Positions 8,444 through 47,145 of a stretch of 64,000 nt of DNA are shown piece after piece; position 1 is the first letter of the stretch, and each line of letters opens with the position of its first letter. The translations under genes were made by a program, and so were the position numbers. The stretch spans positions 13,665 to 77,664 of the forward strand of contig CBIHOS010000005.1 of assembly GCA_966211945.1 (NCBI GenBank). The letters run 5' to 3'. Under the pieces are notes generated by a model. That model ran no database searches, was not told the DNA's origin, and was given only the letters and a program-made list of their open reading frames with translations. The stretch comes from an uncultured bacterium (lineage in GTDB: Bacteria > Acidobacteriota > Vicinamibacteria > Vicinamibacterales > Vicinamibacteraceae).

Positions 8444-8529
8444 CGCCGCATGGTACCCGGCGTTGCCTCCGTTCGGACGCATCTGGCCGGACGTTCACCG
8501 TACAGGACCCACCTCTCCCGGAGTCGAAT

Positions 8530-26709: not shown

Positions 26710-26859
26710 GAAGTCCTCCTGACCCGCGGTGTGCGTGTACCGACAAGAACGGCGGACCGCCGCGAATCGCACACGTGTTCGCCGCCCGGTCGGCGCAGCG
26801 TTTGAGGCATTGACCCGACAACTCGCGCCGCAACCCCGCGTTCATGGGAGCTGTTTCCA

Positions 26860-28611
26860 ATGGCCAAGCGTCCGACCGCCAACACCACTCGCCGCGGCGC
26901 CGCGCCGAGAGCGGCAGCCACAACCGCGGCACCGACCTACGCAGCCACCTGTCACGCGCTACTGGTGTACGCGGCGCCGGCCGAACGCGACGACACGCGC
27001 GCGCTCGCCATTGCTGAGGTGGCCGTGCGCGATGCGATCGGCGATGGCTATTCGGTCCAACCGCTCGGTCCTGGCGCTCGTGATTTCCGCGTGACACCAG
27101 CGGGCGGCGGCGGCATCGCTCCGGGACGGGCGTGGACGCTGACGCGGAGCCTGAAGGCGCATCGCGACATCGCCGACGCCGAACCGGCGATGGAACAGCC
27201 GGGCCTCGAACCGCCTCCTGGTGTCGTCGAGGACCGCCCTGCTGCTGCCCCGCGCGACTTCAAGCCCGATGTGCCGCTGCCGTGCGCGGCCAGCAACCAC
27301 GAGTGGAGCCTCGACCTGTGCCGGGTCAAGCAGGCCTGGGCGCTGACACCGCCGACGCCGGCCGGTCGTACGCACGGCGCGGGCATCGTCGTCGGCCATC
27401 CCGACACCGGTTACACGCGGCACGCCGAGCTCTTCGACGCCCCGCCCCGCGTGCGTGTGCACGACAGCTACGACTTCGTCCTGCGCCAGCCCGATGCGGC
27501 CGATCCGCTGGAGCGCGGCAACCCCGGCCACGGCACGACCACCGCCAGCGTGATCATGAGCGGGGCCGGCGGGCCGGCGACGCCGTTCGTCTCGGGGGTG
27601 GCGCCGGCCGCGGAGCTGATCCCGATTCGCGTGACACCGCGCGTCGTGCTCCTCGGCTTCGATCGACTCGCGGAAGCGATTCGTTACGCGACCGACAAGG
27701 GCTGCCACGTCATTTCGATGAGCCTCGGCGGCGTCACGCCGTCGGGCACGCTCGAGCGCGCCGTCGAGTACGCCGTCGGCCGCGGCGTCGTGGTGCTGGC
27801 CGCGGCCGGCAACGTCTGGCCGTGGGTCGTGTACCCAGCCCGCCTCGATCACGTGATTGCCTGCGCGGCCTGCAACTGCCAGCGCCAGATCTGGGATCGC
27901 TCGGCGAGCGGCGACACCGTGGACGTGACCGCGCCCGGCGAAACCGTGTGGGTGGCGCGTCCCGGCGCTACGGCCAGCCCCGCCGACGATGTGGTGGCGT
28001 CCGGATCGGGCACGTCGTATGCGGTGGCCACGACGGCCGGTGCGTGCGCGCTGTGGCTGGCATTCCACGGCCACGACGCGCTCGCCGCGCGCTACGGTGC
28101 CGGCCAGATCGCCGCCGTCTTCAAGGAAGTGCTGATGACGCACGGCGTCGACACCCCGTCGGGCTGGCGTGCCGACCGGCACGGCGCCGGCATCCTCGAC
28201 GCCGAGAAGCTGCTGCAGGCACCGCTGCCGGCCACGCCGCCGGCAAGCGGCCTCCGCATGCGTGCCGCGGCGACTTCGCGCCCCTTGAACGACGTCGACC
28301 GCTTCCTGCCGTACTACCCGGGCGTCGATCCGGCGCGGGTGCGGCGCGGCCTCGTGCGGGTGCTCGACACCGCGGATACCGATCTGCCCGGTGTGCTCGC
28401 CGAGTACGGCGACGAGCTGCTGTTCCACGTGGCCACCAACCCGCAGGTCCGGGCGCGCGTGCTGAAGGGAGACGGCCCGAAGAAGCGGGGGCAGCTGCTG
28501 CCGTCCCGCACGGCCCGCACGGCCCGCACGGCCCGCGCCACCGCGCCCGCCGCCGCCGGCCGCCTGGCCCGCGAGGGCTCGCGTGCCCTGCTCGTCCGCA
28601 TCGGAGCCTGA
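26860..28611 (+). CDS. Cytoplasmic S8 subtilisin-like serine peptidase
   Basis: Catalytic motifs GHPDTG (D), GHGTTT (H), AAAGN (oxyanion N), GTSYA (S); no signal peptide. Confidence 0.9.
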   Translation: MAKRPTANTTRRGAAPRAAATTAAPTYAATCHALLVYAAPAERDDTRALAIAEVAVRDAIGDGYSVQPLGPGARDFRVTPAGGGGIAPGRAWTLTRSLKAHRDIADAEPAMEQPGLEPPPGVVEDRPAAAPRDFKPDVPLPCAASNHEWSLDLCRVKQAWALTPPTPAGRTHGAGIVVGHPDTGYTRHAELFDAPPRVRVHDSYDFVLRQPDAADPLERGNPGHGTTTASVIMSGAGGPATPFVSGVAPAAELIPIRVTPRVVLLGFDRLAEAIRYATDKGCHVISMSLGGVTPSGTLERAVEYAVGRGVVVLAAAGNVWPWVVYPARLDHVIACAACNCQRQIWDRSASGDTVDVTAPGETVWVARPGATASPADDVVASGSGTSYAVATTAGACALWLAFHGHDALAARYGAGQIAAVFKEVLMTHGVDTPSGWRADRHGAGILDAEKLLQAPLPATPPASGLRMRAAATSRPLNDVDRFLPYYPGVDPARVRRGLVRVLDTADTDLPGVLAEYGDELLFHVATNPQVRARVLKGDGPKKRGQLLPSRTARTARTARATAPAAAGRLAREGSRALLVRIGA

Positions 28612-28619
28612 GGCCGCAT

Positions 28620-29960
28620 GTGCCCGGCATCTGGGAGACCGACGCGGAGTGGCGCCGCCTGCGGCGTGAACTCGCCACCTGGCGAGACCATCGCCGGCAG
28701 CGCGATGCCGACGGCCAGCACCGTTCGCAGCTGGAGGGGTGTGCCGCGGTGATCGACGCCGCCCTGCAGGAGCTGCACGGGCCGATCGCCGCGATGACCG
28801 ATGCCGACCCGCGGGCCGCCGCGCATTGCCGCGTGCACGACCGCCGGCTTGCGTGGCTGCGCCGCACCTGGGACTTCTTCCGCGACCGCTTCGACCAGCG
28901 TGACGACGACGAGCTCGCGCCGCTGCTGCGCGCCGCCGACGAGATCGCCTGGAGCTGTCATCGCGAGGCGTTCGGCGCGCCGCTGGCGTCGCGGTCTGCG
29001 ACTGTCGATCCACCGCCGCTGCCGTACGTCGAGCCGCAGCTGACGCCCGAGGTCTTTCCGCGCGGGCTCGTCCCGGGTGCGCTGCGGCGCGACGTCGACG
29101 CGGTCTTCCTGCGAACCGCGCTGGAGTCGCTGCCGTTCGCGGTCGTGCGCGTGCCGGCGTCCTGCGTCACCGCGCCCTGGTGGCTCGTCCACCTCGGTCA
29201 CGAGGTCGGTCACGTCGTCGACGACCAGATCCTCGGCCATGGCGCCCGCACGGCGATCGTCGAGGAACTCGGGCTCGGCGATCCCGCCACCGAGGAATGG
29301 ACGCGATGGAGCGGCGAGCTCTTCGCGGATCTCTACGCCGTGCTCATGTTCGGTCCGTGGGCGCTGTGGGCACTCGCGACGGCCGAAGCGCGAGACGCCG
29401 ACGCCATGCGCGCGCCGCGCGACGCCTATCCGCCGCCCGTCGTCCGCCTGCTCGTGATGGCTCGCGCCTGCGACGCACTCGGCCACGGCGCCGGCCCGGT
29501 CGACGACGCGGTGCCTGCCTGGCGGGCCTTGGTCGACGGCGATCCGCAGCAGGCCGCGCGAGTGCGCGACGGCGGCCGCCTGGTCGACGCGCTGTTGTCG
29601 TCGCCGGCCGGCGCGCGCGCGTGGCAGGCGCGGACCGCGCACGAGCCGGCGCGCTGGACGCCGGCGTCCCTGCAGACGTGGGTGACGCGGATGCCGACCC
29701 GCCCCGCCGTGGCGCCCGGCAAGCCGCGGCGGCGCTGGGCCCGCGAAGTGATGGCCGCAGGCGTGCTGCGCCGTCGCGCCGCCGACGGCACCCAACCCGG
29801 CGCGTTCGACGGCGCCGCGCTCGCCAGCGATCTGCTGGCGTGGCTGCCTGCCGTGCGAGAAGCGGGCGCGCGATCCACGACGGCCGAACCGACCGTACGC
29901 ACCGCGGCCCGTGGCGCCGCGCTCGCGCAGACCTTGATGGCGGCGGAGCCGCTCACATGA
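28620..29960 (+). CDS. HExxH zincin-like putative metallopeptidase
   Basis: LGHEVGHVV, downstream ELFADLYA (candidate third ligand Glu) and YPPPVVRL; GTG start with GAGG RBS. Confidence 0.6.
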   Translation: MPGIWETDAEWRRLRRELATWRDHRRQRDADGQHRSQLEGCAAVIDAALQELHGPIAAMTDADPRAAAHCRVHDRRLAWLRRTWDFFRDRFDQRDDDELAPLLRAADEIAWSCHREAFGAPLASRSATVDPPPLPYVEPQLTPEVFPRGLVPGALRRDVDAVFLRTALESLPFAVVRVPASCVTAPWWLVHLGHEVGHVVDDQILGHGARTAIVEELGLGDPATEEWTRWSGELFADLYAVLMFGPWALWALATAEARDADAMRAPRDAYPPPVVRLLVMARACDALGHGAGPVDDAVPAWRALVDGDPQQAARVRDGGRLVDALLSSPAGARAWQARTAHEPARWTPASLQTWVTRMPTRPAVAPGKPRRRWAREVMAAGVLRRRAADGTQPGAFDGAALASDLLAWLPAVREAGARSTTAEPTVRTAARGAALAQTLMAAEPLT

Positions 29961-32263
29961 CTCCAGTCAGGTTCACGATCGCGCTGCAGTCCAAACCGGG
30001 AAGCGGTTGGGCCGCCGAGGTCCGCGACGCGCACGGGGTGACGATCGACGGATCGGTACGCACGCTCTCGCCTGTGCCCCTGCCCGATCCCGACGACGAG
30101 TTGCTGACGTTTCCGGCCTGCGCGCTGCCGCTGCCCGGCGGCACGCCGGACGCCCAGGCGCTCGAGGCGCTCGACGCCGCCAGTCTCGGTGCGTGGTACG
30201 CCAACATGGCGTCGGGACAGGCGTCCGACGGTATGCCGCGGACGTTCGGCCGGTATCTCTTCGAGCTCGTGCTCGGCACGCAGGTCTGGGCGGCGATCAC
30301 CGCGCGGGCGGCGGCCGCGCCGATCGATCTGCGAGTCGCGTGCGACCCCGCCGACTGGGCGCTGATGCGCCTGCCCTGGGAGTTGATGCACGATGGCCAG
30401 TACTTCCTGGCCGCGCGTCCCGGCCCGCTCGTGCTCATGAGCCGCGAGATCGTCGCGCCTGGTGCGCCGGCATCGCCGCGCCGCTTCGCGCCGCGCGTGC
30501 TGTTCGTCATCGGCTCGCTGGTGGGCGACACCGAGATCCGCGCCGGCGCCGAGTACCTCGGCCTGCTGCGCCGCCTGCAGGCGCTCGATCTGACCCTCGA
30601 CTGCCGCGTGCTGCGCGAGGCCACCGCGGAACGCCTGCAGGCGGCCATCGCCGACTTCCAGCCCTCGGTCGTCCACTTCATCTGCCATGGCGGCTTCCTG
30701 GAGGGTCGAGGATCGCTGCGGCTGTTGCCGTCCGACCAGGCGTTGCCGTTCCAGGACTACACGGCGCCGCAGTTGCTGAACCTCCTCGCCACCACCGACG
30801 CGGCCGGCACCGTCACGTTCCCGGCCGTCGTCGTCCTCAACGCCTGCTACAGCGCCACGCCTCCTGCGCCGGGCGTCACCGATCCGCTCGACCGGCTGGC
30901 GACGTCGGAGGTGCTCGGCAACGGATCGGGTGCGCTGCCTGTCGGACGCGGCGCGGTGCCGCTGGGCGCCGAACTTGTGGCTGGCGACGGGGCGCACGGC
31001 GGCCCGGCGCTCGTGATCGGCATGGGCGGACAGGTCGCCGACCTGGCCTGCCGGCTCTTCACGCGTCAGTTCTATCAGTCGCTGCTGCGCGGCGATCCGA
31101 CGTGGTCGGCTGCGGCCGGCCGCCGCGGCGCGTTCACCCACGGCTTCGACCCGCGCGACACGATCGACTGGGCGACGCCGGTCGTCTTCGTCGAGTCGCA
31201 GGCCGCCCTCGTCGTCGACCCGCAGGAACTCGATCTCGCCCGGCGGCGCGCCATCGTCGCGCACCAACTGCGCAGCCAGGACGATCCGGCGGCGTTCTGC
31301 GGCCGCCTGACCTACTTCGACGACTGGCGCGAGATCACGCACGCGCCGCGCGGTTCGTCGCGGCGGCTGCTCGGCATCTCGATCAGCGACACCGATCCGG
31401 AGAAGCGCGTCGGCGGGTCGCGCCTGCTCGAGGAGCTGGCGGTCGCCGCCATCCACGCCGGGCACGTGCCGTGCCTGCGCGTCCATCGCGAGGCGTCACC
31501 GGAGCGGCCGTCGGACATCTCCGGCATCGCCCGCGAGATCCTCGCCGTGGCCCTCGACGTGCGCGTCAAGTACGGCCTGCTGCCGCACGACTGGGCGCCG
31601 GAGGTCATCGACCTTCATCTGCACCTGCGCGGCACGGCGGTCGACCTGCCGCTGCCGGTCGCGCGGGCGCTCGCCATCAGCGAGGCCGACGCCTTCCGCA
31701 CCGCGTTGCAGCGCGACCTCTGGCGCATTCGCGACGAGGTCGCCGCCCACGTCACGGCGCCGGTTGGGATCCAGGGGCGTCCGCTTGTCGTGGTGCTGCT
31801 CGACGAAGTGCAGCGCTATGCCGGCGCGGCGGGCCGCTTCGTCGCCGATCTGCTGCGCGCGGGCGGGCTTGGCACCGAGCAGGATCCGATTCCGGTCGCC
31901 TTCACGTACCGGAAGGACCTGAACTACGCCGAGCCGTACGAGCAGGTGCGCAAGGCGCTCGACGCCGTCTCCAACTGGGCGATTCGCCACGAGCTGCACC
32001 CTCTGCGCGAAGCCGCCACTGACCGCTCTATCTATTTGCACCTCCTGCTCCAGCGGACGCCGCCGCTCGTACCCGCGGCCAACCTGCCCTCCGGTCAACT
32101 GGACGGCTGGCTGGGCATCATCCACAACGCGACAGACAGGGGTTACCCGTCGCAGCTGAAGAGCACCGCCCCGGCTCTGAAGATTGCCCTCATGGCCTGT
32201 CAACTCGCCAACGTCATCGTCGAGGCCGACGACGAGCGTGTGCTCGCCGGGCTGGGGAAGTGA
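29957..32263 (+). CDS. CHAT (caspase-like) protease fused to a degenerate STAND-like NTPase
   Basis: LMRLPWELM, VHFICHGG (His), VVLNACYS (Cys), FTRQFYQSLLRG; C-terminal VGGSRLLEELA (Walker A lacking Lys) and VVLLDEVQ. ATGA overlap with the upstream gene. Confidence 0.8.
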   Translation: MTPVRFTIALQSKPGSGWAAEVRDAHGVTIDGSVRTLSPVPLPDPDDELLTFPACALPLPGGTPDAQALEALDAASLGAWYANMASGQASDGMPRTFGRYLFELVLGTQVWAAITARAAAAPIDLRVACDPADWALMRLPWELMHDGQYFLAARPGPLVLMSREIVAPGAPASPRRFAPRVLFVIGSLVGDTEIRAGAEYLGLLRRLQALDLTLDCRVLREATAERLQAAIADFQPSVVHFICHGGFLEGRGSLRLLPSDQALPFQDYTAPQLLNLLATTDAAGTVTFPAVVVLNACYSATPPAPGVTDPLDRLATSEVLGNGSGALPVGRGAVPLGAELVAGDGAHGGPALVIGMGGQVADLACRLFTRQFYQSLLRGDPTWSAAAGRRGAFTHGFDPRDTIDWATPVVFVESQAALVVDPQELDLARRRAIVAHQLRSQDDPAAFCGRLTYFDDWREITHAPRGSSRRLLGISISDTDPEKRVGGSRLLEELAVAAIHAGHVPCLRVHREASPERPSDISGIAREILAVALDVRVKYGLLPHDWAPEVIDLHLHLRGTAVDLPLPVARALAISEADAFRTALQRDLWRIRDEVAAHVTAPVGIQGRPLVVVLLDEVQRYAGAAGRFVADLLRAGGLGTEQDPIPVAFTYRKDLNYAEPYEQVRKALDAVSNWAIRHELHPLREAATDRSIYLHLLLQRTPPLVPAANLPSGQLDGWLGIIHNATDRGYPSQLKSTAPALKIALMACQLANVIVEADDERVLAGLGK

Positions 32264-32267
32264 GCGC

Positions 32268-35200
32268 ATGAGGCCCGAGACGACGTTCACGCCACAGCAC
32301 GCCGCCGACCTGCTGGCCCAGGCCCGGGCCGAACTTGAACTCGAGTCGCTTGCGCGCCTGCCCACCGTCACGCTGCCGGAGACCGCGCGCTGGCTGTGCC
32401 TGGTGCCGGCATGGACGCCGGCACTCGCGGTCCGATGCGGTCTGCCGGGGTGGTCGGACGGCGCCGAGGTGGCCGTGCTCGATGCCTGGCGCGACGAAGG
32501 ACTGGTCGAGACCACGCTGACGGCGCTGGCGATCGACGATCTCGGGCAGTTCATTCCGGCGCAGCGCCTGTTCTGGATGCCCCGCGACGCCCGCCTCGCG
32601 TGGCTGTCACGCGTCCTCGCCGAGGACGGCAGCGAGCGGCTCGTGGCGCTGATGCGCAGCATCGCCCGGCGCGTCTCAACGCAGCCGCGCGATCAGCACC
32701 TGCCCCAGGCCACCTGGCGGTGGGCGACGCTGGCCGCGGTCGAACCGGGCGCGTCGCCGACGCTGGCTGCCGTGTTCGAGGCGGCGATCGACGAGGCGCT
32801 GGCAGGCAGCCGGCAGGACGATGCCTGGTTGTGGATCGAGGCGATGCAGCGCGTGGCCGACGTGACGCCCGGCGAGGCGACGACGCTGCACCAGCGTGCG
32901 GTGCGGCGGCTGGCTCTATTCGATCGACAGCGGAACGACCGCGCCTCCCTGCGGCACTATCTCGCGCGTCCGGAGCAGTTCGACGCGTGGCGCGCGCTGC
33001 TGACCGGGCCGCACGATCGATGGGCGCTGCACTACCTGGGTGGCGGCGGCGTCGGCAAGACGATGCTCATGCGGGCGCTGACGTCAGGCACCGCCGAGCA
33101 CTTTCCACCCGGCTTCGATGCACCGCCGACAGTCACGGCCCGCATCGACTTCGATCACATAAATCCGGACTATCCGGCGCGACGCCCCGGCCTGCTCTTC
33201 GCGCACCTGGCCGAGGAACTGCGGCTCAAGGACGAGACCGGGCGCGCCGCGGAGGCGTTCGCGCTGCTGTTCAGCAGGATCGCGCTGCTGCACGAAAGTC
33301 CGTCTGGCCGCTCCATCGAGCGGACCACCGTCGATCGGCCGGACGGGGGCGCGGTCGAGGACGTGCTGGACGTGTTCGTGCTGGCCTGTGAAGCGGTGGC
33401 GGCGCCGCGCGCGGCGCGCGTCGTCCTCATGCTCGACACCTGCGAGGAGCTGGCCCGCCTCGGCCCCGACGGACGGCTGCCCGAGAGCGTCGAGCGGACC
33501 TTCGAGTTGCTCGAGGCCCTGCACATGCGCATGCCTGAGCTGCGCGTCGTGCTGTGCGGCCGCCGTCCGCTCGCCGGCACGTACGCCGATGGCGACGTGG
33601 TGAGCCCGGTACTGCCACCCAGGCCCTGGATGCGCCTGCACCGGATGTTCGCGTTCTCTGAAGCGGAAGCCAACACCTACCTGTCGCGATCGGGCGTGCC
33701 CGAGCCGCTGGTTGCGCCGATCCTGGCGCGCAGCGGCGCCGCCGCCTCGTCGGCCTCGCTCGGGCTGCCGGCATCGGACGGCACCCGCCGGTACAGCCCG
33801 TTCAGCCTGTCGGTCTATGCCACGTGGGTGTCGCAGCGCGATGCCAGCGTCGACCCCGATGCGATTCTCAACGACCCGGTCGATCACTTCGTGCGCATCC
33901 GGATCCTCGACCGCATCCACAACGCCGACGTGCGGCGGGTGCTGCCGCACGTCGCCCTGCTGGGCCGCTTCGACGAAGCGACGCTGCGGCGCGCGGTCGA
34001 TCTCCACAGCGAGACCGCCGACGCGATCATCCGCGAGGTCGTCGCCCAGGAGTGGATCGACCGGCAGGCCGGCGGCTTCTGCGAGGTCGAGCCTGAACTC
34101 CGGGTGCGGCTGCTGCGCCACCTCGAGCAGGCGTCGCCCCAGGAAGTGCAGGCGGCCCGCCGTCGCGTGCTGCCGGTCCTGTGGGAGTCGCTGGACGCCG
34201 CGCCGCCGTTCGACGTGCCCGACGAACCGATCGTCCAATCGCTCGTCCAGGCGCTGTTGTCCGATCCCGGCGGCCTGCTCACCGCCTGGCGCATCGTCGA
34301 CGCACGGGTCGTGCGCGGCAGCCATGCCGCCTGGGGCGTGAGGGTGCTCGGCCGGCTGCTCGCCGACGATGCGGCGCTGGCCGCGCCGGCGATCGAGGCC
34401 GGCACGTGGGGCGCGTTCGTGACGACGTACGCCGAGTGTGCGCTGCACGAACAAGGCGCCGCGGCCACCGAGGACCTGTGGCGCCGCGCCTGGGACGGCG
34501 TCCAGCAACTGGCCGACGCCGAGGAGCGCGCGTCGGTCCTCGTGCGCGTGGCGAGCGGCGGTCTCGCGCAGGCGGTGGCGGCGGTGGACAACGGCATCGC
34601 CGTCGATCTGTGGGTGCTGCGGCTCTACAACCTGCTGTCGGATCGACACGTGCGCGTGACCGCCCCGTCGCATCTCGCGCCGGCGATCGCGGCGCTGATG
34701 GCGTGCGCCGACGCGGTCGACGCGCAGGCGGATCCGCTGGCCCCGGCGCCGCCGATGCTCGAGCGGATGGCGTCGCTGGCCGCCGAAGTCGTGCACGCTC
34801 CGGCGCGTGCGATGGCGTTGATCTGCGAAGGGCGCTTCGCTCGCCGCCGGCAGGACGCCGCGCTGGCCAGCAAGCGCTTCGTCGACGCGTTGCAGACGAT
34901 GACGGGCAGCGAGGAGCGCGAGCTGATTGCGTGCCTGCAGTGGCCGGCCTGTCTCCGTGCCGAGAGGGTGACTGGTGGACGCGCATCGGATCGGCTCGAT
35001 CCCACGGCATGGGTCACCCTCGAGGCGATGCGCGGCCTTGCGGGCCTGGAACCGATCGACGCGACGCTCGCGCGGTTCGACGGACTGCCGCCGGTCCAGG
35101 GCGCGATCTCCGCGGGCCGCCTGCAGGCGCTGAGACTCTCGCTGGCGGCCGCCATTCGCGTGCCCGACAGGTCCGATGTGACGGATCGGCCGACGCAGGC

Positions 35201-37733
35201 CCTGCCGTCGGGGGCGCAGCAGGAAGTCGCGCTGGCGTTGACGACGGCGCACCGTGCCATCCTTCCCGCCGCCGCCGTCTCGGCTCTCGAGATCATCGAG
35301 CTGGGACGGCCCGACCTCGGGTTCCGCTGGCTCGCCGAACTGACGTCGATCGCCACGAGCGCGCGCAACACCGCGGTTGCCGCGGCGATTCGCCGGGCCG
35401 AGTCCGAGGCGGCGACGCGGCTGCGCCTCGGTGATCTGCCGCCCTATGCGAGGCAGCTCGCCGCGCATGCCGAGGCGCTACCGCATCAGGATCGCGAGCG
35501 GGTCCGCGCTTTCCTGCCGCCCAACGCGTTGCCGCCGACTTCCGACGAGGCAGCCCGCACGCGGGGCGCCTGTCACGCGATGTGGCGGGCCCGAGCGGCG
35601 CTCGACGACACCGAACGGGCCGCACTGGCGGAGTGGGGCCGCCGCGTCATTCTGGCGGCCCCTGAGGACGACAGCGAGTTCGCCTCGGCCTCGGTCGCGC
35701 TCGACCTCGTGGAGTGCAGCGACCTGGGCGTCGACGCCGAAGTGGCCACGCACCTGACGCCGACCTCGCCCGAGGACTGGTGGCACCGGCACCCGGCCGC
35801 GCCGGAGCTGGCCCTGCGCGTCTGGATTCGGAGCGCCGCCCTGGGCGTGTCGCCGGGAGGCCCGACCACGGAGCTCGTGAGACGTGTTGGCGTCCGCCGC
35901 GCCGCGGCCATCGCGTCGGAGGAGGGTGAGCTGCTGGCGCTGCGGCTGCCGGGCCAGGCCTTGCGCCTGCTCGCGCTCGCCCTGACCTGGTACGAGGATG
36001 CGCACGACGCGCTCGGCATCTGGCAGGTCTCGGCGCTGCTGTCGCTGACCCGCGTGAGGGCGGGAGTCCCGCGCGAGAGCATCGATCTCGGCGCCCTCCA
36101 GGCCGCCCACGACACCGTCTTCGCGCTCCAGCAGGCGAGCGCCGGTCCTCTGGGCCTGCTGCCGTGGACTGCGCTGGCGACCGGCGCTGCGCCGCTGGCG
36201 GTGCCGCCGGCCGGGGCCGAATGGGTGCCCTGGCTGCATCGTGTGATGGCGTTACAGCAATGGGTCGTCGGTGGCGTGCGTCCCGAGGTGGTCTTCGGCG
36301 CGGGCGCGCAGCTGCCGATCGAACTGCGCGGCTGGCCCGGCGGACGCGGCGACGCGATGACGACGACCCAGTCGGGGATCACGGCGGCAGCGGCGCCGCC
36401 GGCTGCGGCACCGGCGAGCGTACCGGCCGCGATGCCGCCCGCCCCGGTGGGCGCGCCCGGGGGATCCGTGCCGCCCTCGGCCGGCCACCCCACCGTGCCC
36501 GGCCCGGCGCGCTCGCCGGCCAGAGCCGGTTCCGCGATGCGCGCCGGCGCGCTCGTCGCCGGTGCCGTGGTCACCGCCGCGCTGGCGTTGGGGGGCGCTC
36601 CTTCCTGGGCATTCGGACTGGCCATCGCGCTGCTGCTCGGCCTGCTCGCGTGGACGGTGATTTGGCTGCGCGACGATCCCGACGCCACCGTTGCGCCGCC
36701 GATCGTGTGGACGGCGCGCGTCGTGGAGGCCGGCGGCAGCAGTGCCGCCGCCCGCATCGCCGCGCTGGATCTGTCGGTGTCGATCCACGACGACCGCGGC
36801 AACGCGATCACGACCGTCCCGATGCGGGTCAGACGCACCGATGCCTTCGCCGGACTCGATGCGCTGCGGCAGCCACCGGCCGGCACGGCCCTGTCGGCCC
36901 CGCTGCCGCGCACGCCCGCGCTGAAGCGGACCTGGCTCGAAGTCGCGGTGGCCAACGCCTGGCCCTGCTGGGAGGCGCTTCTGTGGTCCGGCCTGCTCGA
37001 TCGAGACCGGCTGTACCCGTCGGTCGTGCGGCGCGTGCCGGCGGCGCGCGCGGCCAGGCCCCTGGAACCGGCGACGGGAGGCGTGTGGAGCGTCGCGACC
37101 GTGTCCGCCTCGTCGAGCGACGAGCGCCAGGCGCTGTACGCGTGGGAACCCGCGACCCGCGCCGGGCACGTGCGGACGCGCCCGATCGCTGCCGAGGCGG
37201 TGCGCGCCGGCATGCCCGAGGACGGCGTCCAGGTCGCGCACGTCATCGCGCTGCCGGTCGACACGCCGCAGGGGCTGTTCTTCGAGGTGTCGAGCGGCGA
37301 CGCGGCCCAGTACAAGGAGACGCTCGAGTCACTTGCGGTCGATCGCGGCACGCTCTTCGACGCGTCACGGATCACGCACGCGTTCCCAGACGTGGCGTGC
37401 GTGCTGATCCAGCCGCCGAGGCGCCCGTCGCTCGACCTGACGCCGGCCGCCCGCGAAACGTGCGCGCAGCTGCGGGTGATTGGCGCGGCCCTCGCCGAGC
37501 ACGGCGTGTCGCTCGTCGTCGTGCTGCCGCCGCTCGACGGAGAGCTCGGCGCCGACCTCGTGCGGCTGCTGGGGCGACGTCTGGCGGGCCTGCGCGCCGG
37601 CCGCACCATCGATCCGCACGAGTTCGTCACGCGCGCCCGCGAGATCACGATGGCGCACGCGCAACGTGTGCTGCCGCGCGATGCCGCCATCGAGCTGGCG
37701 CTGCAGATCGCCGTGTACGCGGCGCGGGCATGA
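32268..37733 (+). CDS. Large STAND (AAA_16/NACHT-like) NTPase with helical repeats, a two-helix membrane hairpin and a C-terminal pseudo-CHAT domain
   Basis: Walker A GGGGVGKT (33039-33062), Walker B LMLDTCEE, VVLCGR; hydrophobic hairpin ~36546-36669; degenerate CHAT-like tail. Confidence 0.75.
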   Translation: MRPETTFTPQHAADLLAQARAELELESLARLPTVTLPETARWLCLVPAWTPALAVRCGLPGWSDGAEVAVLDAWRDEGLVETTLTALAIDDLGQFIPAQRLFWMPRDARLAWLSRVLAEDGSERLVALMRSIARRVSTQPRDQHLPQATWRWATLAAVEPGASPTLAAVFEAAIDEALAGSRQDDAWLWIEAMQRVADVTPGEATTLHQRAVRRLALFDRQRNDRASLRHYLARPEQFDAWRALLTGPHDRWALHYLGGGGVGKTMLMRALTSGTAEHFPPGFDAPPTVTARIDFDHINPDYPARRPGLLFAHLAEELRLKDETGRAAEAFALLFSRIALLHESPSGRSIERTTVDRPDGGAVEDVLDVFVLACEAVAAPRAARVVLMLDTCEELARLGPDGRLPESVERTFELLEALHMRMPELRVVLCGRRPLAGTYADGDVVSPVLPPRPWMRLHRMFAFSEAEANTYLSRSGVPEPLVAPILARSGAAASSASLGLPASDGTRRYSPFSLSVYATWVSQRDASVDPDAILNDPVDHFVRIRILDRIHNADVRRVLPHVALLGRFDEATLRRAVDLHSETADAIIREVVAQEWIDRQAGGFCEVEPELRVRLLRHLEQASPQEVQAARRRVLPVLWESLDAAPPFDVPDEPIVQSLVQALLSDPGGLLTAWRIVDARVVRGSHAAWGVRVLGRLLADDAALAAPAIEAGTWGAFVTTYAECALHEQGAAATEDLWRRAWDGVQQLADAEERASVLVRVASGGLAQAVAAVDNGIAVDLWVLRLYNLLSDRHVRVTAPSHLAPAIAALMACADAVDAQADPLAPAPPMLERMASLAAEVVHAPARAMALICEGRFARRRQDAALASKRFVDALQTMTGSEERELIACLQWPACLRAERVTGGRASDRLDPTAWVTLEAMRGLAGLEPIDATLARFDGLPPVQGAISAGRLQALRLSLAAAIRVPDRSDVTDRPTQALPSGAQQEVALALTTAHRAILPAAAVSALEIIELGRPDLGFRWLAELTSIATSARNTAVAAAIRRAESEAATRLRLGDLPPYARQLAAHAEALPHQDRERVRAFLPPNALPPTSDEAARTRGACHAMWRARAALDDTERAALAEWGRRVILAAPEDDSEFASASVALDLVECSDLGVDAEVATHLTPTSPEDWWHRHPAAPELALRVWIRSAALGVSPGGPTTELVRRVGVRRAAAIASEEGELLALRLPGQALRLLALALTWYEDAHDALGIWQVSALLSLTRVRAGVPRESIDLGALQAAHDTVFALQQASAGPLGLLPWTALATGAAPLAVPPAGAEWVPWLHRVMALQQWVVGGVRPEVVFGAGAQLPIELRGWPGGRGDAMTTTQSGITAAAAPPAAAPASVPAAMPPAPVGAPGGSVPPSAGHPTVPGPARSPARAGSAMRAGALVAGAVVTAALALGGAPSWAFGLAIALLLGLLAWTVIWLRDDPDATVAPPIVWTARVVEAGGSSAAARIAALDLSVSIHDDRGNAITTVPMRVRRTDAFAGLDALRQPPAGTALSAPLPRTPALKRTWLEVAVANAWPCWEALLWSGLLDRDRLYPSVVRRVPAARAARPLEPATGGVWSVATVSASSSDERQALYAWEPATRAGHVRTRPIAAEAVRAGMPEDGVQVAHVIALPVDTPQGLFFEVSSGDAAQYKETLESLAVDRGTLFDASRITHAFPDVACVLIQPPRRPSLDLTPAARETCAQLRVIGAALAEHGVSLVVVLPPLDGELGADLVRLLGRRLAGLRAGRTIDPHEFVTRAREITMAHAQRVLPRDAAIELALQIAVYAARA

Positions 37734-37743
37734 GGAGGATCCG

Positions 37744-38808
37744 GTGCCGCTGCTCGACACCCTGAAGGACTGGTGGGCTCACGACGCGTCGGGGGCCGTC
37801 GTCCACGACCTTGCCGCGGCCGCCGTCACGCCGTCCGGCGACACCGGCGCGGCGTGCACGGCCGGCCTGCACTACTTCCGCCTGTGGCTCGCCGAGATGC
37901 GCGTAGCTCGCGACAAGGAGTGGTTCGCGACGCGCCATCCGGCGGTGCACGCCCTCGTCCGCCTGCGCTTCGGCGACGTCATGGTGGAACTGCCGACGAT
38001 CGCCGGCCCGATGTCGCTGCCCGGACTCGATGAGGCGCACCTCGGCGACGTCGTGCAGCTCGACTACCCGCTGACGCCCCTGCTTCCCTACAACGGCGGC
38101 ATCGTCGAAGTCGCGGCCGGACTGGTGGCGCTCGAGGGCGGCCGCGTGCTCGGCGAGTTCATCGGCGCGATCGAGACCGTGACGTCCGTGCTCGCGCAGC
38201 CGCCGCTGTCGACGGCACTCGCGGCGGTCGGCCCCGTGACGAGCGCCGTGCAGACGCTGTTCGGCGCGGGCAAGGGGCGTCAGCACCTGGGCCTGCACGT
38301 GGCGTATGCCGGCGCCGGCGCGCCACAGGCGCTGCACGCCGGCTACCTTGCGGTCGTGCGGCGGGCGGCCGCGCCGATCGACGCTGCAGCGCTGCGCGTC
38401 GAGACGGGCCGTCTTCGGCTGCGCGGAGAGCCGCTCGACGGCGCGGACTCGATGCTGTTCAGAATCGAACGGATGACCGAGCGCGATGACTGGGACAGTC
38501 TCGCGACCATCGCGCGTCCGTTCAGGGACGCGCTCACCGCGCTGGCGCACCGCGACGAGACGATGGCCGAGGCGCTGGTGCGGCGGGCCGTGCTCGAGGC
38601 GTACTCGTCTCCCGACTTGACCCGCGCCGATCGGCCGCGCGTGTGCGCGGAGATCAAGCGCACCTACCAGGACGCGCGCGACGCCGGGCTCGGTCTCGAG
38701 CGGAGTGCGACGTCGCTGTCGCAGGCGATGGCCGCGGCGCTGCCGGCCGCGACGCTGGCGCGGCAGGCGCCGCCGACCCTGTCGTCCTTGCTGGACCTGA
38801 CCACGTGA
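37744..38808 (+). CDS. Hypothetical protein in the protease operon (candidate effector or substrate)
   Basis: GAGGAGG RBS + GTG; beta-rich N-half, amphipathic/hydrophobic central helices, helical tail; no family recognised. Confidence 0.65.
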   Translation: MPLLDTLKDWWAHDASGAVVHDLAAAAVTPSGDTGAACTAGLHYFRLWLAEMRVARDKEWFATRHPAVHALVRLRFGDVMVELPTIAGPMSLPGLDEAHLGDVVQLDYPLTPLLPYNGGIVEVAAGLVALEGGRVLGEFIGAIETVTSVLAQPPLSTALAAVGPVTSAVQTLFGAGKGRQHLGLHVAYAGAGAPQALHAGYLAVVRRAAAPIDAAALRVETGRLRLRGEPLDGADSMLFRIERMTERDDWDSLATIARPFRDALTALAHRDETMAEALVRRAVLEAYSSPDLTRADRPRVCAEIKRTYQDARDAGLGLERSATSLSQAMAAALPAATLARQAPPTLSSLLDLTT

Positions 38809-38820
38809 GCGGAGAGTGAC

Positions 38821-39624
38821 ATGGCCAAGAAAGCCCTGTGTGTCGGCATCAACGACTACCCGTACGACGGGTCCGATCTCAATGGATGCGTCAACGACGC
38901 GAACGCATGGGCCGCCGTGCTGAAGGAGCTCTACGGCTTTGCGGACGTCGCGCTGCTGCTGGATGCCGAGGCCACCCGCGTCCGGATGCTCGACGGCCTG
39001 AAGACGCTGCTGGCCGGCGCCGCCGCCGGCGACGTGCTCGTCTTCACCAACTCCTCGCACGGCTCGTACAAGGCCGACACCGACGGCGACGAGGAGAAGT
39101 ACGACGAGATCCTCTGCCCGTACGACATCGCCGACAACGACATCGCCGACGATGACCTCAGGCAGCTGTTCGCGAACCTGCCGGCCGGCGTCCACCTGAC
39201 GGTGGTCCTCGACAACTGCCATTCGGGCACCGCGACGCGCGCTTCCGTTTCCGACATCATTCCCGGGCTGCGGACGCCGGACGACCGGCGCGTGCGGTTC
39301 CTCAGCCCGGCGCTGCGCGGCGGCAAGGTGCTCGAGAACCCGTGGGCGGCCAAGCCGAAGCGGCAGATCGCGCATCCCGAGTCCGCGATGAAGGAGGTGC
39401 TGCTCTCCGGCTGCACCGACAAGCAGTACTCCTACGACGCCAGCATCGAGGGCACCTACCACGGGGCGATGACCTTCTACGCGATCAAGGCGATTCGCGA
39501 ATCGCCCGGGCTGCTCACGTACAATCGCCTGCACAAGCGCATCGCGAGTCTGATCGAGGACTATCCGCAGAATCCGCAGCTGGAGGGCAGCAGCGCCAAC
39601 AAGCGGCGGAAGCTGTTCACCTGA
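38821..39624 (+). CDS. Peptidase C14 metacaspase/orthocaspase
   Basis: KKALCVGINDY, LNGCVNDA, SSHGS (His), LDNCHSG (Cys), GAMTFY, QNPQLEG. Confidence 0.93.
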   Translation: MAKKALCVGINDYPYDGSDLNGCVNDANAWAAVLKELYGFADVALLLDAEATRVRMLDGLKTLLAGAAAGDVLVFTNSSHGSYKADTDGDEEKYDEILCPYDIADNDIADDDLRQLFANLPAGVHLTVVLDNCHSGTATRASVSDIIPGLRTPDDRRVRFLSPALRGGKVLENPWAAKPKRQIAHPESAMKEVLLSGCTDKQYSYDASIEGTYHGAMTFYAIKAIRESPGLLTYNRLHKRIASLIEDYPQNPQLEGSSANKRRKLFT

Positions 39625-39638
39625 GGACACGGTCGCCC

Positions 39639-41300
39639 GTGTACACGCTGGACGGTCGCCAGAAGAAGGCCCTGCACGCGGCGCTGCTCGCGGCATTCCC
39701 GCGCCACGCGTCGCTCGAGCAGCTGGTCCTGTTCCACCTCGACACGCATCTCGCGGTCGTGGCGGGCGAAGGACCGCTGACCGACGTCGTCTTCCGCCTG
39801 ATGGACTGGGCCGAGGCGCAGGGCCGCCTGGATGCGCTCGTCAACGGCGCGCGCGACGAGAACCCGGAGAACCCGCAGCTCATCGCCTTCGAGCGGCTGG
39901 TGCTGGAGGCCCGCGACACACGCCCGCAGGATTCGGCGCTGCGGCAGTTCGCCGAGCGTGTGCAGCTGGCGCCGGTGATGCCTGCCGATCCGGATCTCGA
40001 GAAGCGCGTCTTCCGGGCGGGCTTTTCGGACATCGCGCAGTGGCGGGCCCGGCTCGGTCAGGCGGAGCTGGCCGTGTGCCGCATCGAGGCGCCGGCGTGG
40101 CGCGCCCTCGGCACCGGCTTTCTGGTCGGGCCCGATCTGGTCGTGACCAACCGGCATGTCGTGGACGCGCTCGCGTCCGATCCGGCGCCGCCGCTGGTGG
40201 CGCGCTTCGACTTCAAGGTCTCGCCCGACGGCACGCGGCTCCGCGAGGGCCGGACCTTCGGCCTGGCCCGCGACTGGCTCGTGGCGAGCAGCCCGGTTGC
40301 CGAGCTCGACTTCGCAGTGGTGCGGCTCGACGCCCGTGCCGGCGACCTCGCTCCGGGTGGAACGTCGGGCGCGCCGCCGCGCGGCTGGATCACGCCGGCC
40401 TGGCGCGACCTCGAAGCCGACGAGACGCTGTTCGTGATCCAGCACCCGCAGGGGGACGCGCTGAAGCTGGCGGCCGGGCGCTTCGATCGGCGCGAGCCGA
40501 CTAGGCTGCGCTACCGCGTGGACACCGAGCCCGGTTCGTCGGGATCGCCGTGCTTCACCGCGCAGCTCGAGCTCGTCGCCCTGCACCGCGGCGCCGCCGA
40601 GGGGGCTGCCAACCAGGGCGTGCCGTTCGACGCCATCGTCGCGGCCCTGCCGGATGCCGTGCGCGCGTCGATGCAGCCGTTCGTGGTCACCGTGCCGGCG
40701 ACCGACAGCGCGCCCGACACGGACGCGCCGGCCCGTGCCGGTGTGGAGCGCCTGCCCAACGCGCCGCTCACGCCGGCGGCATCGACGGCGGCGCGGCGCC
40801 GGCCGGTTGTCGTTGCCGCGGCGATGCTGGTGGTGGCGCTCACGGGTGCCGTGGCGTGGTGGCGCCCGTGGACGGCGGCAGGCGGCACGCGATCGCCCAC
40901 GCCGCCGCCGATCGCGGTGCGGGAGATCTCGGTGCCCTTCGAATGGGCGCGCGTGGCGGACACTCGCGGTTCGTGCGAGTCGGCTGGAGGTGTGACGCGG
41001 GCGCTCTACCGCGGGCAGTCGCAGGGCGCCTGGCCGGCCACCAGGGGACAGCGGGCCCGCGAGTTGCTGCTCGTTGCCTACCAGACGGTGGCCATCGAGC
41101 AGGTGACCGCGTCGATGGCCGGCAACAGCGAGGCGCTGAGCGTCCTGGGCGGCACGGCCAACCGCGACGTTGCGCGCAAGCTGCAGTTCCCGGCCGCCGT
41201 CACCGCGCCGGTCGTCGTCGTCGCCTGCGTCCGGACGCCGCTGCCCGCGCCCGAGGCGCCGCCGTTCCGTGTGTCGACCTGGAGGGAGGTCACGCCATGA
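39639..41300 (+). CDS. EAD1 - trypsin-like (S1) serine peptidase - transmembrane helix - extracytoplasmic domain
   Basis: N-terminal LHAALLAAFP...LEQLV...VVFRLMDWAEAQGRLDALVNGARDENPENPQL (EAD1-like); TNRHVV (H), LDFAVV (D), PGSSGSP (S); TM ~40806-40860. Confidence 0.8.
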   Translation: MYTLDGRQKKALHAALLAAFPRHASLEQLVLFHLDTHLAVVAGEGPLTDVVFRLMDWAEAQGRLDALVNGARDENPENPQLIAFERLVLEARDTRPQDSALRQFAERVQLAPVMPADPDLEKRVFRAGFSDIAQWRARLGQAELAVCRIEAPAWRALGTGFLVGPDLVVTNRHVVDALASDPAPPLVARFDFKVSPDGTRLREGRTFGLARDWLVASSPVAELDFAVVRLDARAGDLAPGGTSGAPPRGWITPAWRDLEADETLFVIQHPQGDALKLAAGRFDRREPTRLRYRVDTEPGSSGSPCFTAQLELVALHRGAAEGAANQGVPFDAIVAALPDAVRASMQPFVVTVPATDSAPDTDAPARAGVERLPNAPLTPAASTAARRRPVVVAAAMLVVALTGAVAWWRPWTAAGGTRSPTPPPIAVREISVPFEWARVADTRGSCESAGGVTRALYRGQSQGAWPATRGQRARELLLVAYQTVAIEQVTASMAGNSEALSVLGGTANRDVARKLQFPAAVTAPVVVVACVRTPLPAPEAPPFRVSTWREVTP

Positions 41301-42085
41301 GACCGCTTCGCCTGGTGTCGCTCGCCATACCGTTCGCGCTGCTGCTGGCGTGCCGCGATGAACCGCCCGCACCGCCGCCGGCCGCGCCCGAGGCGACCGC
41401 GGTGCTGTTCGGCCGCGTCCTCGGCTCCGATCACACGGCGGCCGTGCCTGCCGACTGGCAGGCGCGGGTGACGGCGGAGTACGAGGACGGCACCAGCGTG
41501 GCGCCGCGCGATCGCGACAGCAATGGCGACCTGTTCGCGTTCAAGGTGGTGCCAGGCAAGCGGGTGCGCCTCTACTTCGAGGCGGTGCCGTACCAGGCGG
41601 CGGTCAGCGAGGCGTTCGACGTGACGTCAGAGCGCAGTTACGCGTTTCGCGTCCCCGACATCGTGATGGACCGCATCCGCTGGACGATGGCGTTGTTTGC
41701 CAAGGGCAACGGCGAAGCGTTCGGCCGGAATCTGGAAGCGCAGGCGGCCGTGGCCGAGAAGACGGGCTCGGCGGACATCTTCCGCGCCAACCTGGAGTTC
41801 CTCCGGAAGGCCTCTGCGCGGTTCCCGGACTGCATGCGCAAGCTCGAGGCGTTCGAGCGCACGCCGCGCGGCGTCGCCTTGACCCGCCAGGCCGAGGCGC
41901 GCGGAGTGCCGGTGTCGCTGCTGCAGACGCTTGTCGCATCGCCAGCCCGCGCGGCGCAGGAGGAGCCGGAGGCACTGCGCACGCTGGCCGCCAATCCGCG
42001 ACTGGCGCGGTCGCTCCGCAACGAGGCGACCCGCGCGCTTGCTGCCGTACCCACGTTGCCCTCGCCCACACGCCCGAACAGGTAG
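41297..42085 (+). CDS. Putative lipoprotein, last gene of the protease operon
   Basis: MRPLRLVSLAIPFALLLA-C lipobox-like signal; ATGA overlap with the upstream gene. Confidence 0.7.
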   Translation: MRPLRLVSLAIPFALLLACRDEPPAPPPAAPEATAVLFGRVLGSDHTAAVPADWQARVTAEYEDGTSVAPRDRDSNGDLFAFKVVPGKRVRLYFEAVPYQAAVSEAFDVTSERSYAFRVPDIVMDRIRWTMALFAKGNGEAFGRNLEAQAAVAEKTGSADIFRANLEFLRKASARFPDCMRKLEAFERTPRGVALTRQAEARGVPVSLLQTLVASPARAAQEEPEALRTLAANPRLARSLRNEATRALAAVPTLPSPTRPNR

Positions 42086-42132
42086 GGCGCGCCGCCTCCG
42101 CAGGAAGGTAGGCCCGTTGTCCCAACGCGGCC
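42082..42132. repeat. Two GTAG REP-like units
   Basis: GTAG at 42082 overlaps the stop codon; 42108-42132 matches 17509-17534. Confidence 0.65.
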
Positions 42133-42139
42133 CGACGTA

Positions 42140-42442
42140 TCACGACGACGGCGGCGTGTATCCGTCGACGATCAGCGCCTTGCCGACCGAGTTGGCCTGC
42201 CGCACCCGCAGCGCGTCCTGGTAGTCGTCAGAGAAGTACCAGGCCTTGGCGGCGTCGACAGACGCGAACTCGACGACGACGATCCGCTGCGGGTTCCAGT
42301 CGCCTTCGAGCGTCGTGACCTCGCCGCCGCGCACGACGAAGCGGCCGCCGTGCCGCGCGACGCTGGCCCCGGCCAGGTCGCGGTAGGCCGCATAGGGCTC
42401 GGAGTTGGTGATGGTGACTTCGACGATGACGAAGGCGCTCAT
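42140..42442 (-). CDS. DUF1330-family protein
   Basis: YAAYRDLAGASVARHGGRFVVRGG, VVVEFASVDAAKAWYFSDDYQ. Confidence 0.88.
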   Translation of the reverse strand: MSAFVIVEVTITNSEPYAAYRDLAGASVARHGGRFVVRGGEVTTLEGDWNPQRIVVVEFASVDAAKAWYFSDDYQDALRVRQANSVGKALIVDGYTPPSS

Positions 42443-46964: not shown

Positions 46965-47062
46965 CGGAAGAAGGTTCCTCTGGATTGGCAGGACGGACTG
47001 GCGCCGTTGTACCCCGGTCGGGCCGGACATGGCACCGCGTGGCCGGCGACAGCCACTGTCCA

Positions 47063-47078
47063 GTCCAATTAGCTGGAA
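47063..47078. promoter_or_regulatory. Second copy of the operator (GTCCA-N6-TGGAA)
   Basis: 9/10 match to the core, between divergent GH2 and six-hairpin genes. Confidence 0.5.
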
Positions 47079-47145
47079 TCTACAGCCGCGCCGGCCGCAG
47101 GTCGGGACCCTCGGGACCGCCGGCCTTGCGTACCATGCGCGGCAC

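Follow-up and report, generated by a model that had tools for sequence, protein, structure and literature searches.

What does a bacterium do with a run of genes in which five peptidase motifs stand beside a giant NTPase and a lipoprotein? Such a run occupies positions 26860-42085 of the 64,000-nucleotide stretch analysed here (hereafter the window; contig CBIHOS010000005.1 of assembly GCA_966211945.1, positions 13,665 to 77,664), which comes from an uncultured member of the Vicinamibacteraceae (Acidobacteriota). Its eight + strand genes, g1 to g8 (Table 1), were delimited by GC3 frame plot and inspection of start codons; raw lists of open reading frames (ORFs) are noisy because the G+C content of the window is ~70%. 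An initial annotation, made from the sequence alone, had treated all eight as one candidate system, a sensor-triggered cascade of proteases. The conserved unit is instead a four-gene core, g2-g3-g4-g5 (minimally g3-g4), whereas the S8, C14 and EAD1-trypsin peptidases and the lipoprotein are specific to one clade. We take the region as a whole, with a probability of roughly 0.55, to be an NTPase-switched proteolytic signalling system in which the widespread core is joined by three extra proteases and a lipoprotein of this lineage.

A four-gene core conserved across phyla

There are hundreds of g4 homologues, of which those from Luteitalea (Acidobacteriota, Vicinamibacteria) are the closest. A g4 profile search of species-representative genomes gave 80 loci; the queries used on their six-frame ORFs were the eight window proteins and hidden Markov models (HMMs) of the families. 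In at least 42 of these 80 g4-anchored genome loci, g2-g3-g4-g5 follow one another in one order and orientation, an arrangement shared by at least seven phyla. The cassette is found in Acidobacteriota, Actinomycetota (including Amycolatopsis, Streptosporangium, Actinoplanes, Frankia and Kribbella), Chloroflexota, Myxococcota (Sorangium, Archangium and Byssovorax) and Planctomycetota, with further hosts among the Alpha- and Gammaproteobacteria and one Clostridia genome assembled from metagenomes. Counting g2 and g5 in the 63 non-redundant loci with enough flanking sequence, both are present in 51, neither in 7 and only one in 5 (Fisher's exact p = 4.5e-6, not corrected for phylogeny). Metagenome loci anchored on g5 agree in their layout, g4 lying directly upstream in 41 of the 49 that have at least 1.5 kb of upstream sequence; two further g5-anchored loci have the rearranged order g2-g5-g3. 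All-against-all clustering of flanking ORFs found no recurrent accessory genes around the core outside the Vicinamibacteria.

Two loci depart from the usual order in having g2 downstream of g4, namely L047 and the Archangium gephyra locus L084 (15396-18237); in the latter, a 471-aa C25/caspase-like protein replaces g5.

Table 1. Genes of the block at window positions 26860-42085.
Gene	Position	Strand	Product
g1	26860..28611	+	cytoplasmic subtilase (S8), 583 aa
g2	28620..29960	+	446 aa, mostly helical, HExGH...E..AD motif; core cassette gene
g3	29957..32263	+	CHAT protease, 768 aa; core cassette gene
g4	32268..37733	+	giant P-loop (STAND-like) NTPase, 1821 aa; core cassette gene
g5	37744..38808	+	354 aa, large unannotated family; core cassette gene
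g6	38821..39624	+	stand-alone C14 caspase-like peptidase, 267 aa
g7	39639..41300	+	EAD1 adaptor, trypsin-like serine peptidase and membrane segment
g8	41297..42085	+	predicted lipoprotein, 262 aa; start overlaps g7 stop by 4 nt

The CHAT protease and the giant NTPase

The g3 protein consists of an N-terminal part of ~100 aa, a CHAT domain (aa ~105-409) and a P-loop-like domain (aa ~445-700). The CHAT domain matches Pfam PF12770 (3e-16, 60.2 bits against a cut-off of 24) and carries the motifs CHGG and NACYS. The catalytic pair, H244 and C297, shows no exception in an alignment of 25 homologues and has been retained by 63 of 65 family members. The closest solved relative, reached with the g3 family profile, is PDB entry 8tl0, a 'CHAT domain-containing protein' (2.7e-10). 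The C-terminal half of g3 contains G[KRG][TS]RLL and hhhhD[DE] motifs ~130 aa apart, a spacing equal to that in g4, and aligns with the Walker A region of g4 (hhalign P 1.8e-4). Many family members have lost the Walker lysine, and in the Vicinamibacteria clade the motif reads GGS. On its motifs this half reads as a degenerate P-loop domain.

In two Anaerolineae metagenome-assembled genomes (L026, 7121-15511, and L029, 1465-9750), g3 is without both CHAT catalytic residues, and neither g2 nor g5 was detected alongside it. For g5 a true absence is demonstrated in L026 alone, because the L029 contig ends at g4. Loss of the dyad together with undetected g2 and g5 fits a dependency of the output on the protease.

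The g4 protein comprises an N-terminal region (1-240), an NTPase domain (~240-700), helical repeats (~700-1400), two hydrophobic segments (aa 1423-1461, nt 36534-36650) and a CHAT-like domain (aa ~1545-1821, nt ~36900-37730). It contains the motifs GGGGVGKT and LMLDTCEE, and the residues of Walker A (G258...K264 T265) and Walker B (D390...E393 E394) are invariant in 24 homologues, which identifies a P-loop NTPase. The pair of hydrophobic segments lies about three quarters along the protein in most family members. Models of TPR repeats match few of the 24 homologues.

The relationship between the C-terminus of g4 and the CHAT domain of g3 was established by profile comparison. A first hhalign run, on slices of a fast global alignment, gave P 0.003; redone with L-INS-i alignments and controls, it gave a probability of 88.8% (P 2.5e-6, 225 columns), five unrelated controls having P of at least 0.046, and a second run gave 93.2% (E 2.9e-7, 257 columns). 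The columns of the catalytic His and Cys are not conserved in the CHAT-like domain of g4, which has no conserved Cys at all. Since these columns are not conserved, we regard the domain as a pseudo-protease. Neither this inactive CHAT-like C-terminus nor the P-loop-like domain of g3 was among the features initially annotated.

A putative metallopeptidase

In the window g2 the signature motif is HEVGH...ELFAD, and H194, E195, G197, H198, E233, A236 and D237 are invariant in 25 diverse homologues. The AlphaFold2 (AF2) model is mostly helical [predicted local distance difference test (pLDDT) 86, predicted TM-score (pTM) 0.87]. The motif suggests that g2 is a putative gluzincin-type metallopeptidase, of a family absent from Pfam, NCBIfam and PADLOC.

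The g5 family

Searching with a g5 profile returned 1,645 cluster representatives at E<=1e-3. In the AF2 model (pLDDT 80, pTM 0.77), a hydrophobic helical hairpin (aa ~134-175) interrupts a beta-sandwich, and helices make up the C-terminal region; none of the hydrophobic stretches of the protein reached the transmembrane threshold. There are no sequence relatives with solved structures. A Foldseek search of the model against the Protein Data Bank (PDB) gave 0 of 625 matches at E<=0.001. Gasdermin was considered as an identity for g5 and rejected: no Pfam family of any kind matches g5 at E<=10, the gasdermin models miss g8 at that threshold too, and the 50 Foldseek matches listed include no gasdermin.

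The one significant structural match to the g5 model is an uncharacterized 323-aa protein of Hokovirus HKV1 (BFVD A0A1V0SF49; Foldseek E 3.2e-6, probability 1.00, TM-score ~0.4 over the full length), so that a g5-like fold exists in a virus of eukaryotes.

Fusions connect g5 to several classes of protease: S8 (P0264), CHAT (P0267, P0269 and P0328), C25-like (P0293 and P0309) and C14 (P0351). The g5 domain is N-terminal in all of them, and two of the fusions occupy the g5 position within g2-g3-g4 cassettes (L048 and L019). On this pattern g5 is a candidate protease-controlled effector or adaptor.

The family also occurs in loci without g4. In L108 (9974-16421), g5 is followed by a C14 protein (685 aa) and a TPR-CHAT protein (935 aa). 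In L091 (4646-13006), TPR-S-Trypsin_2 and TPR-S proteins lie downstream of g5 and a Roc/Ras-like GTPase ~1.7 kb upstream, and in L098 (133-3330) a TPR-S protein precedes g5. These three look like separate systems that reuse g5.

Additions in the Vicinamibacteria

Among the loci analysed, g1, g6, g7 and g8 join the cassette only in a Vicinamibacteria clade of Luteitalea-like soil bacteria (L001-L012, L088, L090 and Luteitalea sp. TBR-22). All eight genes stand together in the same order in Luteitalea sp. TBR-22, a cultured strain (AP024452.2, about 6.206-6.227 Mb), and in metagenome-assembled genomes related to it, as the initial annotation had supposed in expecting the genes to travel together elsewhere, and this recurrence of the order indicates that the arrangement is not due to chance. 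Protein identity to the window across the clade is 55-84% per gene, C14 (g6) being the most conserved. The upstream flank is syntenic throughout the clade. The downstream flank varies while g6-g8 stay attached, with DUF1330 and IclR genes in the window and purE/purK in L002. Members L002 and L005 are without g2 and g5, yet have kept S8 and C14.

The subtilase g1 matches Peptidase_S8 over aa 173-403 (Pfam PF00082; 1.4e-28, 100.5 bits against a gathering score of 21.8) and has all three triad motifs (DTG182, HGT224 and GTS384), which places it in the S8 family. It is extended by ~170 aa at the N-terminus, which is not signal-like, and by ~100 aa at the C-terminus, and its identity across the clade is 72-82%. 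Its TIGR03921 score of 136 bits, where the cut-off is 279, excludes assignment as a mycosin. The stand-alone peptidase g6 (Pfam PF00656, Peptidase_C14; 2.1e-25, 90.2 bits against a gathering score of 21.4) has the C14 dyad in the motifs SHGS79 and DNCHSG131 (His80 and Cys133), with an identity across the clade of 68-92%.

In g7 an EAD1 domain (aa 3-84; PF19955, 2.8e-22, 79.4 bits against a cut-off of 24.2) is fused to an effector, Trypsin_2 (aa 158-315; 3.6e-19, 70.3 bits against a cut-off of 27.6), with the motifs NRHV and GSSGSP, and H174 and S301 are present. The ~145-aa C-terminal domain past the membrane segment (aa 388-406) is probably extracytoplasmic. The gene is kept in L006, L007, L008, L088 and TBR-22. 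The lipoprotein g8, which occurs always together with g7, begins with MRPLRLVSLAIPFALLLAC, including the lipobox LLLAC; g8 has no match in Pfam, NCBIfam or PADLOC, and is 68-71% identical in L002, L006, L007, L088 and TBR-22. Tight linkage, conservation in the clade and the EAD1 domain are what suggests that g7 and g8 belong with the core.

Organization of the operon and its surroundings

The initial description of the block was borne out. The eight genes are co-oriented, with junctions in order of +8, -4, +4, +10, +12, +14 and -4 nt; the motifs of all five peptidases (S8, HExxH, CHAT, C14 and trypsin) are present; EAD1 lies in g7 and hydrophobic segments in g4 (two) and g7 (one); and a signal-like N-terminus with a lipobox is found, among g1-g8, in g8 only, the peptidases being without export signals as proposed. 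With their catalytic residues intact, g1, g3, g6 and g7 look like active enzymes. No terminator-like sites occur at any g1-g8 boundary (two matches elsewhere are below shuffle expectation), and a scan for promoters and terminators gave no signal exceeding shuffle expectation. DNA metagenomes confirm the assembly: 55-92% of sampled words of window 32268-41300 (g4-g7) are present in several rhizosphere metagenomes, and contigs of the best, placed on 26500-42400, cover most of the operon.

The block is flanked by opposite-strand genes, upstream for a cytochrome c-like protein and an OYE flavoenzyme, downstream for DUF1330 and an IclR regulator. Further away, the product of window 3623-8494 (-), 1,624 aa long, unites DUF4011 with an SF1 helicase (AAA_11/AAA_12), an MTES_1575 domain resembling restriction endonucleases, and DUF3320. 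This helicase-nuclease architecture lies ~18 kb from the operon, with SUF Fe-S cluster and transporter genes between. On the other side, a gene for a TonB-dependent receptor is closely preceded by a long ORF, window 46732-49965 (+), that has a high G+C content at third positions and matches no Pfam family. Its 5' part overlaps a GH2 gene of the opposite strand, so that translation probably starts further downstream.

Comparison with known systems

Families were searched in Pfam (2025), NCBIfam (2026) and PADLOC-DB v2.0.0 (2023). No model in the three libraries matches g2, g5 or the window g4, and Pfam includes EAD and nSTAND families yet none for g2, g4 or g5. Against the anti-phage systems of PADLOC, g1, g2, g4, g5 and g8 have no match, and g3, g6 and g7 match generically, at domain level only. 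As had been anticipated, there is no system-level match beyond the generic CHAT and caspase domains; nor did library and fold searches find a gasdermin, MoxR/vWA or CRISPR component, the initial annotation having recognized none. Literature searches found no description of the cassette, which is not proof that none exists.

Bacterial gasdermins are effectors activated by proteolysis, and 43 of 50 have a protease next to them, of the C14, CHAT or another type and in many cases joined to TPR, NACHT or Roc modules (Johnson et al., bioRxiv 10.1101/2021.06.07.447441). The partners of g5 are the same: C14, CHAT, TPR-CHAT, S8, trypsin and, nearby, a Roc GTPase. This agreement of g5 fusions and neighbours with the gasdermin association pattern argues that the S8 and C14 peptidases of the operon are functionally tied to the core. 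Unlike the gasdermin operons, however, the block encodes no protein of gasdermin fold, g5 having a weakly C2-like core, and alongside g5 the cassette has an HExxH protein and a giant membrane NTPase, encoded separately, that bears a pseudo-CHAT domain.

In the type III-B CRISPR/CBASS hybrid of Haliangium, oligomerized SAVED-CHAT activates a caspase-like protease, PCaspase (Steens et al., bioRxiv 10.1101/2023.06.23.546230). Activation of a caspase by CHAT within a bacterial immune system provides an experimental precedent for a cascade. The SAVED_CHAT and caspase models of PADLOC match g3 and g6 at domain level, the former over the CHAT part only (g3 aa 190-435 on model positions 114-293). The operon differs in having neither SAVED, cyclase, Cas10 nor a CRISPR array, so that the input would be a P-loop NTPase and not a cyclic oligonucleotide, and in adding S8, trypsin and HExxH proteins. 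Among the Pfam-annotated genes of the window (not every window ORF was scanned) there is neither a cyclase nor a Cas gene, which separates the locus from CBASS and type III systems.

EAD1 is a hallmark of the NTP-dependent conflict systems described from bacteria of multicellular habit (Kaur et al., eLife 2020, PMC7159879; 2021, PMC8195603). The likeness to the present loci extends to STAND-like NTPase cores, to caspase, trypsin and S8 effectors, to EAD1 on a trypsin effector, to TPR-S (here in related g5 loci) and to a bias towards actinomycetes, myxobacteria, Chloroflexota and Acidobacteriota. The operon differs in lacking MoxR, vWA, VMAP, iSTAND and GAP1 and in having no EAD1 cognate on a core component. 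A MoxR/vWA pair with VMAP, iSTAND or FtsH, which would mark a ternary system, is not found in g1-g8 or the adjacent genes. The available text of the 2020 article (PMC7159879) does not contain the word CHAT, and its passages retrieved for CHAT, EAD1, subtilisin and zincin describe no such gene set.

The Avs, bNACHT and CARD-NLR gasdermin systems use a P-loop NOD and a repeat sensor to control an effector, some of them through trypsin-like proteases and adaptor domains (PMC10312443). The cassette would have this control logic in common with them. In contrast, g4 has a predicted membrane anchor and a pseudo-protease domain, the protease being a CHAT-NOD fusion encoded by another gene, and g4 has neither a PADLOC family match (E<=0.01) nor a sequence relative in the PDB.

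Among eukaryotic complexes, the apoptosome and the inflammasome are NTP-dependent oligomeric platforms that activate a caspase-fold protease by proximity, and caspase-8 pairs with the pseudo-caspase cFLIP. The resemblance is one of analogy only, as the CHAT protease here is not a canonical caspase and Death-fold adaptors are missing. The eight-gene form is a lineage-specific elaboration of the four-gene cassette, which would work like the STAND- or sensor-controlled caspase-like systems but lacks the defining features of each one.

Proposed mechanism and alternative readings

If the parts act together, g4 would be both sensor and switch: on a signal, nucleotide-dependent oligomerization at the membrane would gather g3 molecules. 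Docking would pair like with like, the P-loop-like domain of g3 with the NTPase of g4 and the CHAT domain with the g4 pseudo-CHAT domain, and the resulting proximity would activate g3. The activated CHAT domain would cleave downstream components, with g5 together with g2 as the likeliest output; g5 may be a membrane-acting effector released by proteolysis or an adaptor that passes the activation on to further proteases. In the Luteitalea/Vicinamibacteria lineage, the C14 and S8 peptidases would form extra tiers of the cascade or extra inputs to it, as would the EAD1-trypsin in the membrane and its partner lipoprotein.

A conflict or regulated cell-death system would be a plausible and the most likely role, for which the neighbouring genes give no support. 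A further-reaching version we consider doubtful, with odds well short of even. In it, the core would be a class of its own, new and widespread, among the immune or regulated-death systems of bacteria. Its membrane-bound STAND platform would pair CHAT with a built-in pseudo-CHAT domain, as a bacterial equivalent of caspase-8 and cFLIP on an apoptosome, and g5 would be a gasdermin-independent, protease-released membrane effector reused with C14, CHAT, S8 and trypsin proteases across several unrelated sensor systems.

The sensor-triggered protease cascade first proposed for the locus is still the most economical reading, and a number of points weigh against it. All its steps are inferred, among them the order of cleavage, the substrate, the signal and the g3-g4 contacts. 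The assignment of g4 to the STAND NTPases, secure as regards the invariant Walker motifs, is weak beyond them: the window protein has no Pfam match at E<=0.01, its homologues match AAA_16 (15 of 24, best 1e-9) and NACHT (13 of 24, best 5e-5) mostly below threshold, no PADLOC family model matches at E<=0.01, and there is no sequence relative among solved PDB structures. Its repeat region is not conspicuously hypervariable. For g2, neither Foldseek nor sequence and profile searches of the PDB gave a significant match to solved zincins; the label 'zincin-like' proposed at the outset is supported by the invariant HExxH...E motif only. For g5, the PDB matches are weak C2-domain matches below significance (E 0.02-0.1). 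A cognate partner for the EAD1 adaptor is expected on the published model of such systems, and no second EAD1 was found in the operon proteins or the window, either with Pfam at E<=10 on sub-segments or with a clade HMM run with filters off. RNA-labelled runs contributed a single 172-nt contig from one run, inside g6 (39006-39177), which is uninformative on co-transcription.

The surroundings also count on that side. In the Vicinamibacteria the locus is syntenic, looks vertically inherited and lies beside metabolic genes. Outside the clade the flanks are heterogeneous and mostly housekeeping, their 113 ORFs matching 150 Pfam families of which none occurs in more than 3 ORFs; a PADLOC scan of these 113 gave negligible matches and no defence-island enrichment, contrary to the setting among known defence genes that the initial annotation had led one to expect. 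No copies of the cassette were found in phage and plasmid collections. Individual copies do adjoin TIR, toxin-antitoxin, RHS, integrase or nSTAND1 genes.

The strongest alternative, unlikely on balance, concerns the place of g5 and would make it a regulatory prodomain, adaptor or inhibitor (resembling a CARD-type adaptor or a protease inhibitor) that docks proteases on the platform, the proteases themselves being the effectors that degrade cellular targets. Its prodomain-like position, always N-terminal in protease fusions, would suit such a function, as would hydrophobic stretches under the transmembrane threshold and the weakness of the C2 match. The SAVED-CHAT/PCaspase system offers a parallel in its dedicated PCaspase inhibitor and the broad substrates of PCaspase. 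Most cassettes, however, hold g5 with g3 as the only protease, so that an output role is needed for g5 there, and the conserved hydrophobic helical hairpin inserted in the sandwich also speaks for an effector.

Slightly less probable, in our view, is a regulatory or housekeeping proteolytic machine that would serve soil bacteria with large genomes in signalling (envelope or stress), in developmental processing or in the quality control of proteins, and in which the lipoprotein and the membrane-anchored trypsin would sense the state of the envelope. The flanks with no enrichment of known defence genes, the stable synteny beside cytochrome c/OYE and purE/purK genes in the Vicinamibacteria, the evident purifying selection on all eight genes together with g4 repeats that are not hypervariable, and the absence from phage and plasmid collections are all in accordance with it. 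It fits poorly, though, with a patchy spread over at least seven phyla in unrelated contexts, with the gain or loss of g2 and g5 as a module and with the TIR, toxin-antitoxin, RHS, integrase or nSTAND1 genes beside some copies. EAD1 and TPR-S partners are, moreover, described in conflict systems, and the association pattern of g5 resembles that of gasdermins.

That g2-g5 alone constitute the system, S8, C14, EAD1-trypsin and the lipoprotein being neighbours retained by synteny and functionally uncoupled, is improbable: the restriction of the four extra genes to a single lineage with shared upstream synteny (the clade loci listed above) and the missing cognate partner of EAD1 would agree with it, but the genes share one strand with junctions that overlap or span at most 14 nt, g6-g8 remain attached despite the differing downstream flanks of the window and L002, S8 and C14 persist in the variants without g2 and g5 (L002 and L005), and elsewhere g5 is fused to C14 or S8 and stands beside C14 and trypsin genes in unrelated systems.

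Significance

Were the regulatory alternative true, the locus would encode a novel membrane signalling protease complex common in soil bacteria. If the NTPase-switched system proposed here is true, a widely distributed and self-contained protease-switch module would join the bacterial NLR-like and caspase-like systems. Two of its elements would be new in bacteria, as judged from the libraries and papers searched: a built-in pseudo-protease partner of an initiator CHAT protease, and, in g5, a second family of small protease-associated proteins, which would occupy the genomic niche of gasdermins with another fold. The system is open to direct testing, as the cultured Luteitalea sp. TBR-22 has the full operon and the core occurs in Sorangium and in actinomycetes that are tractable.

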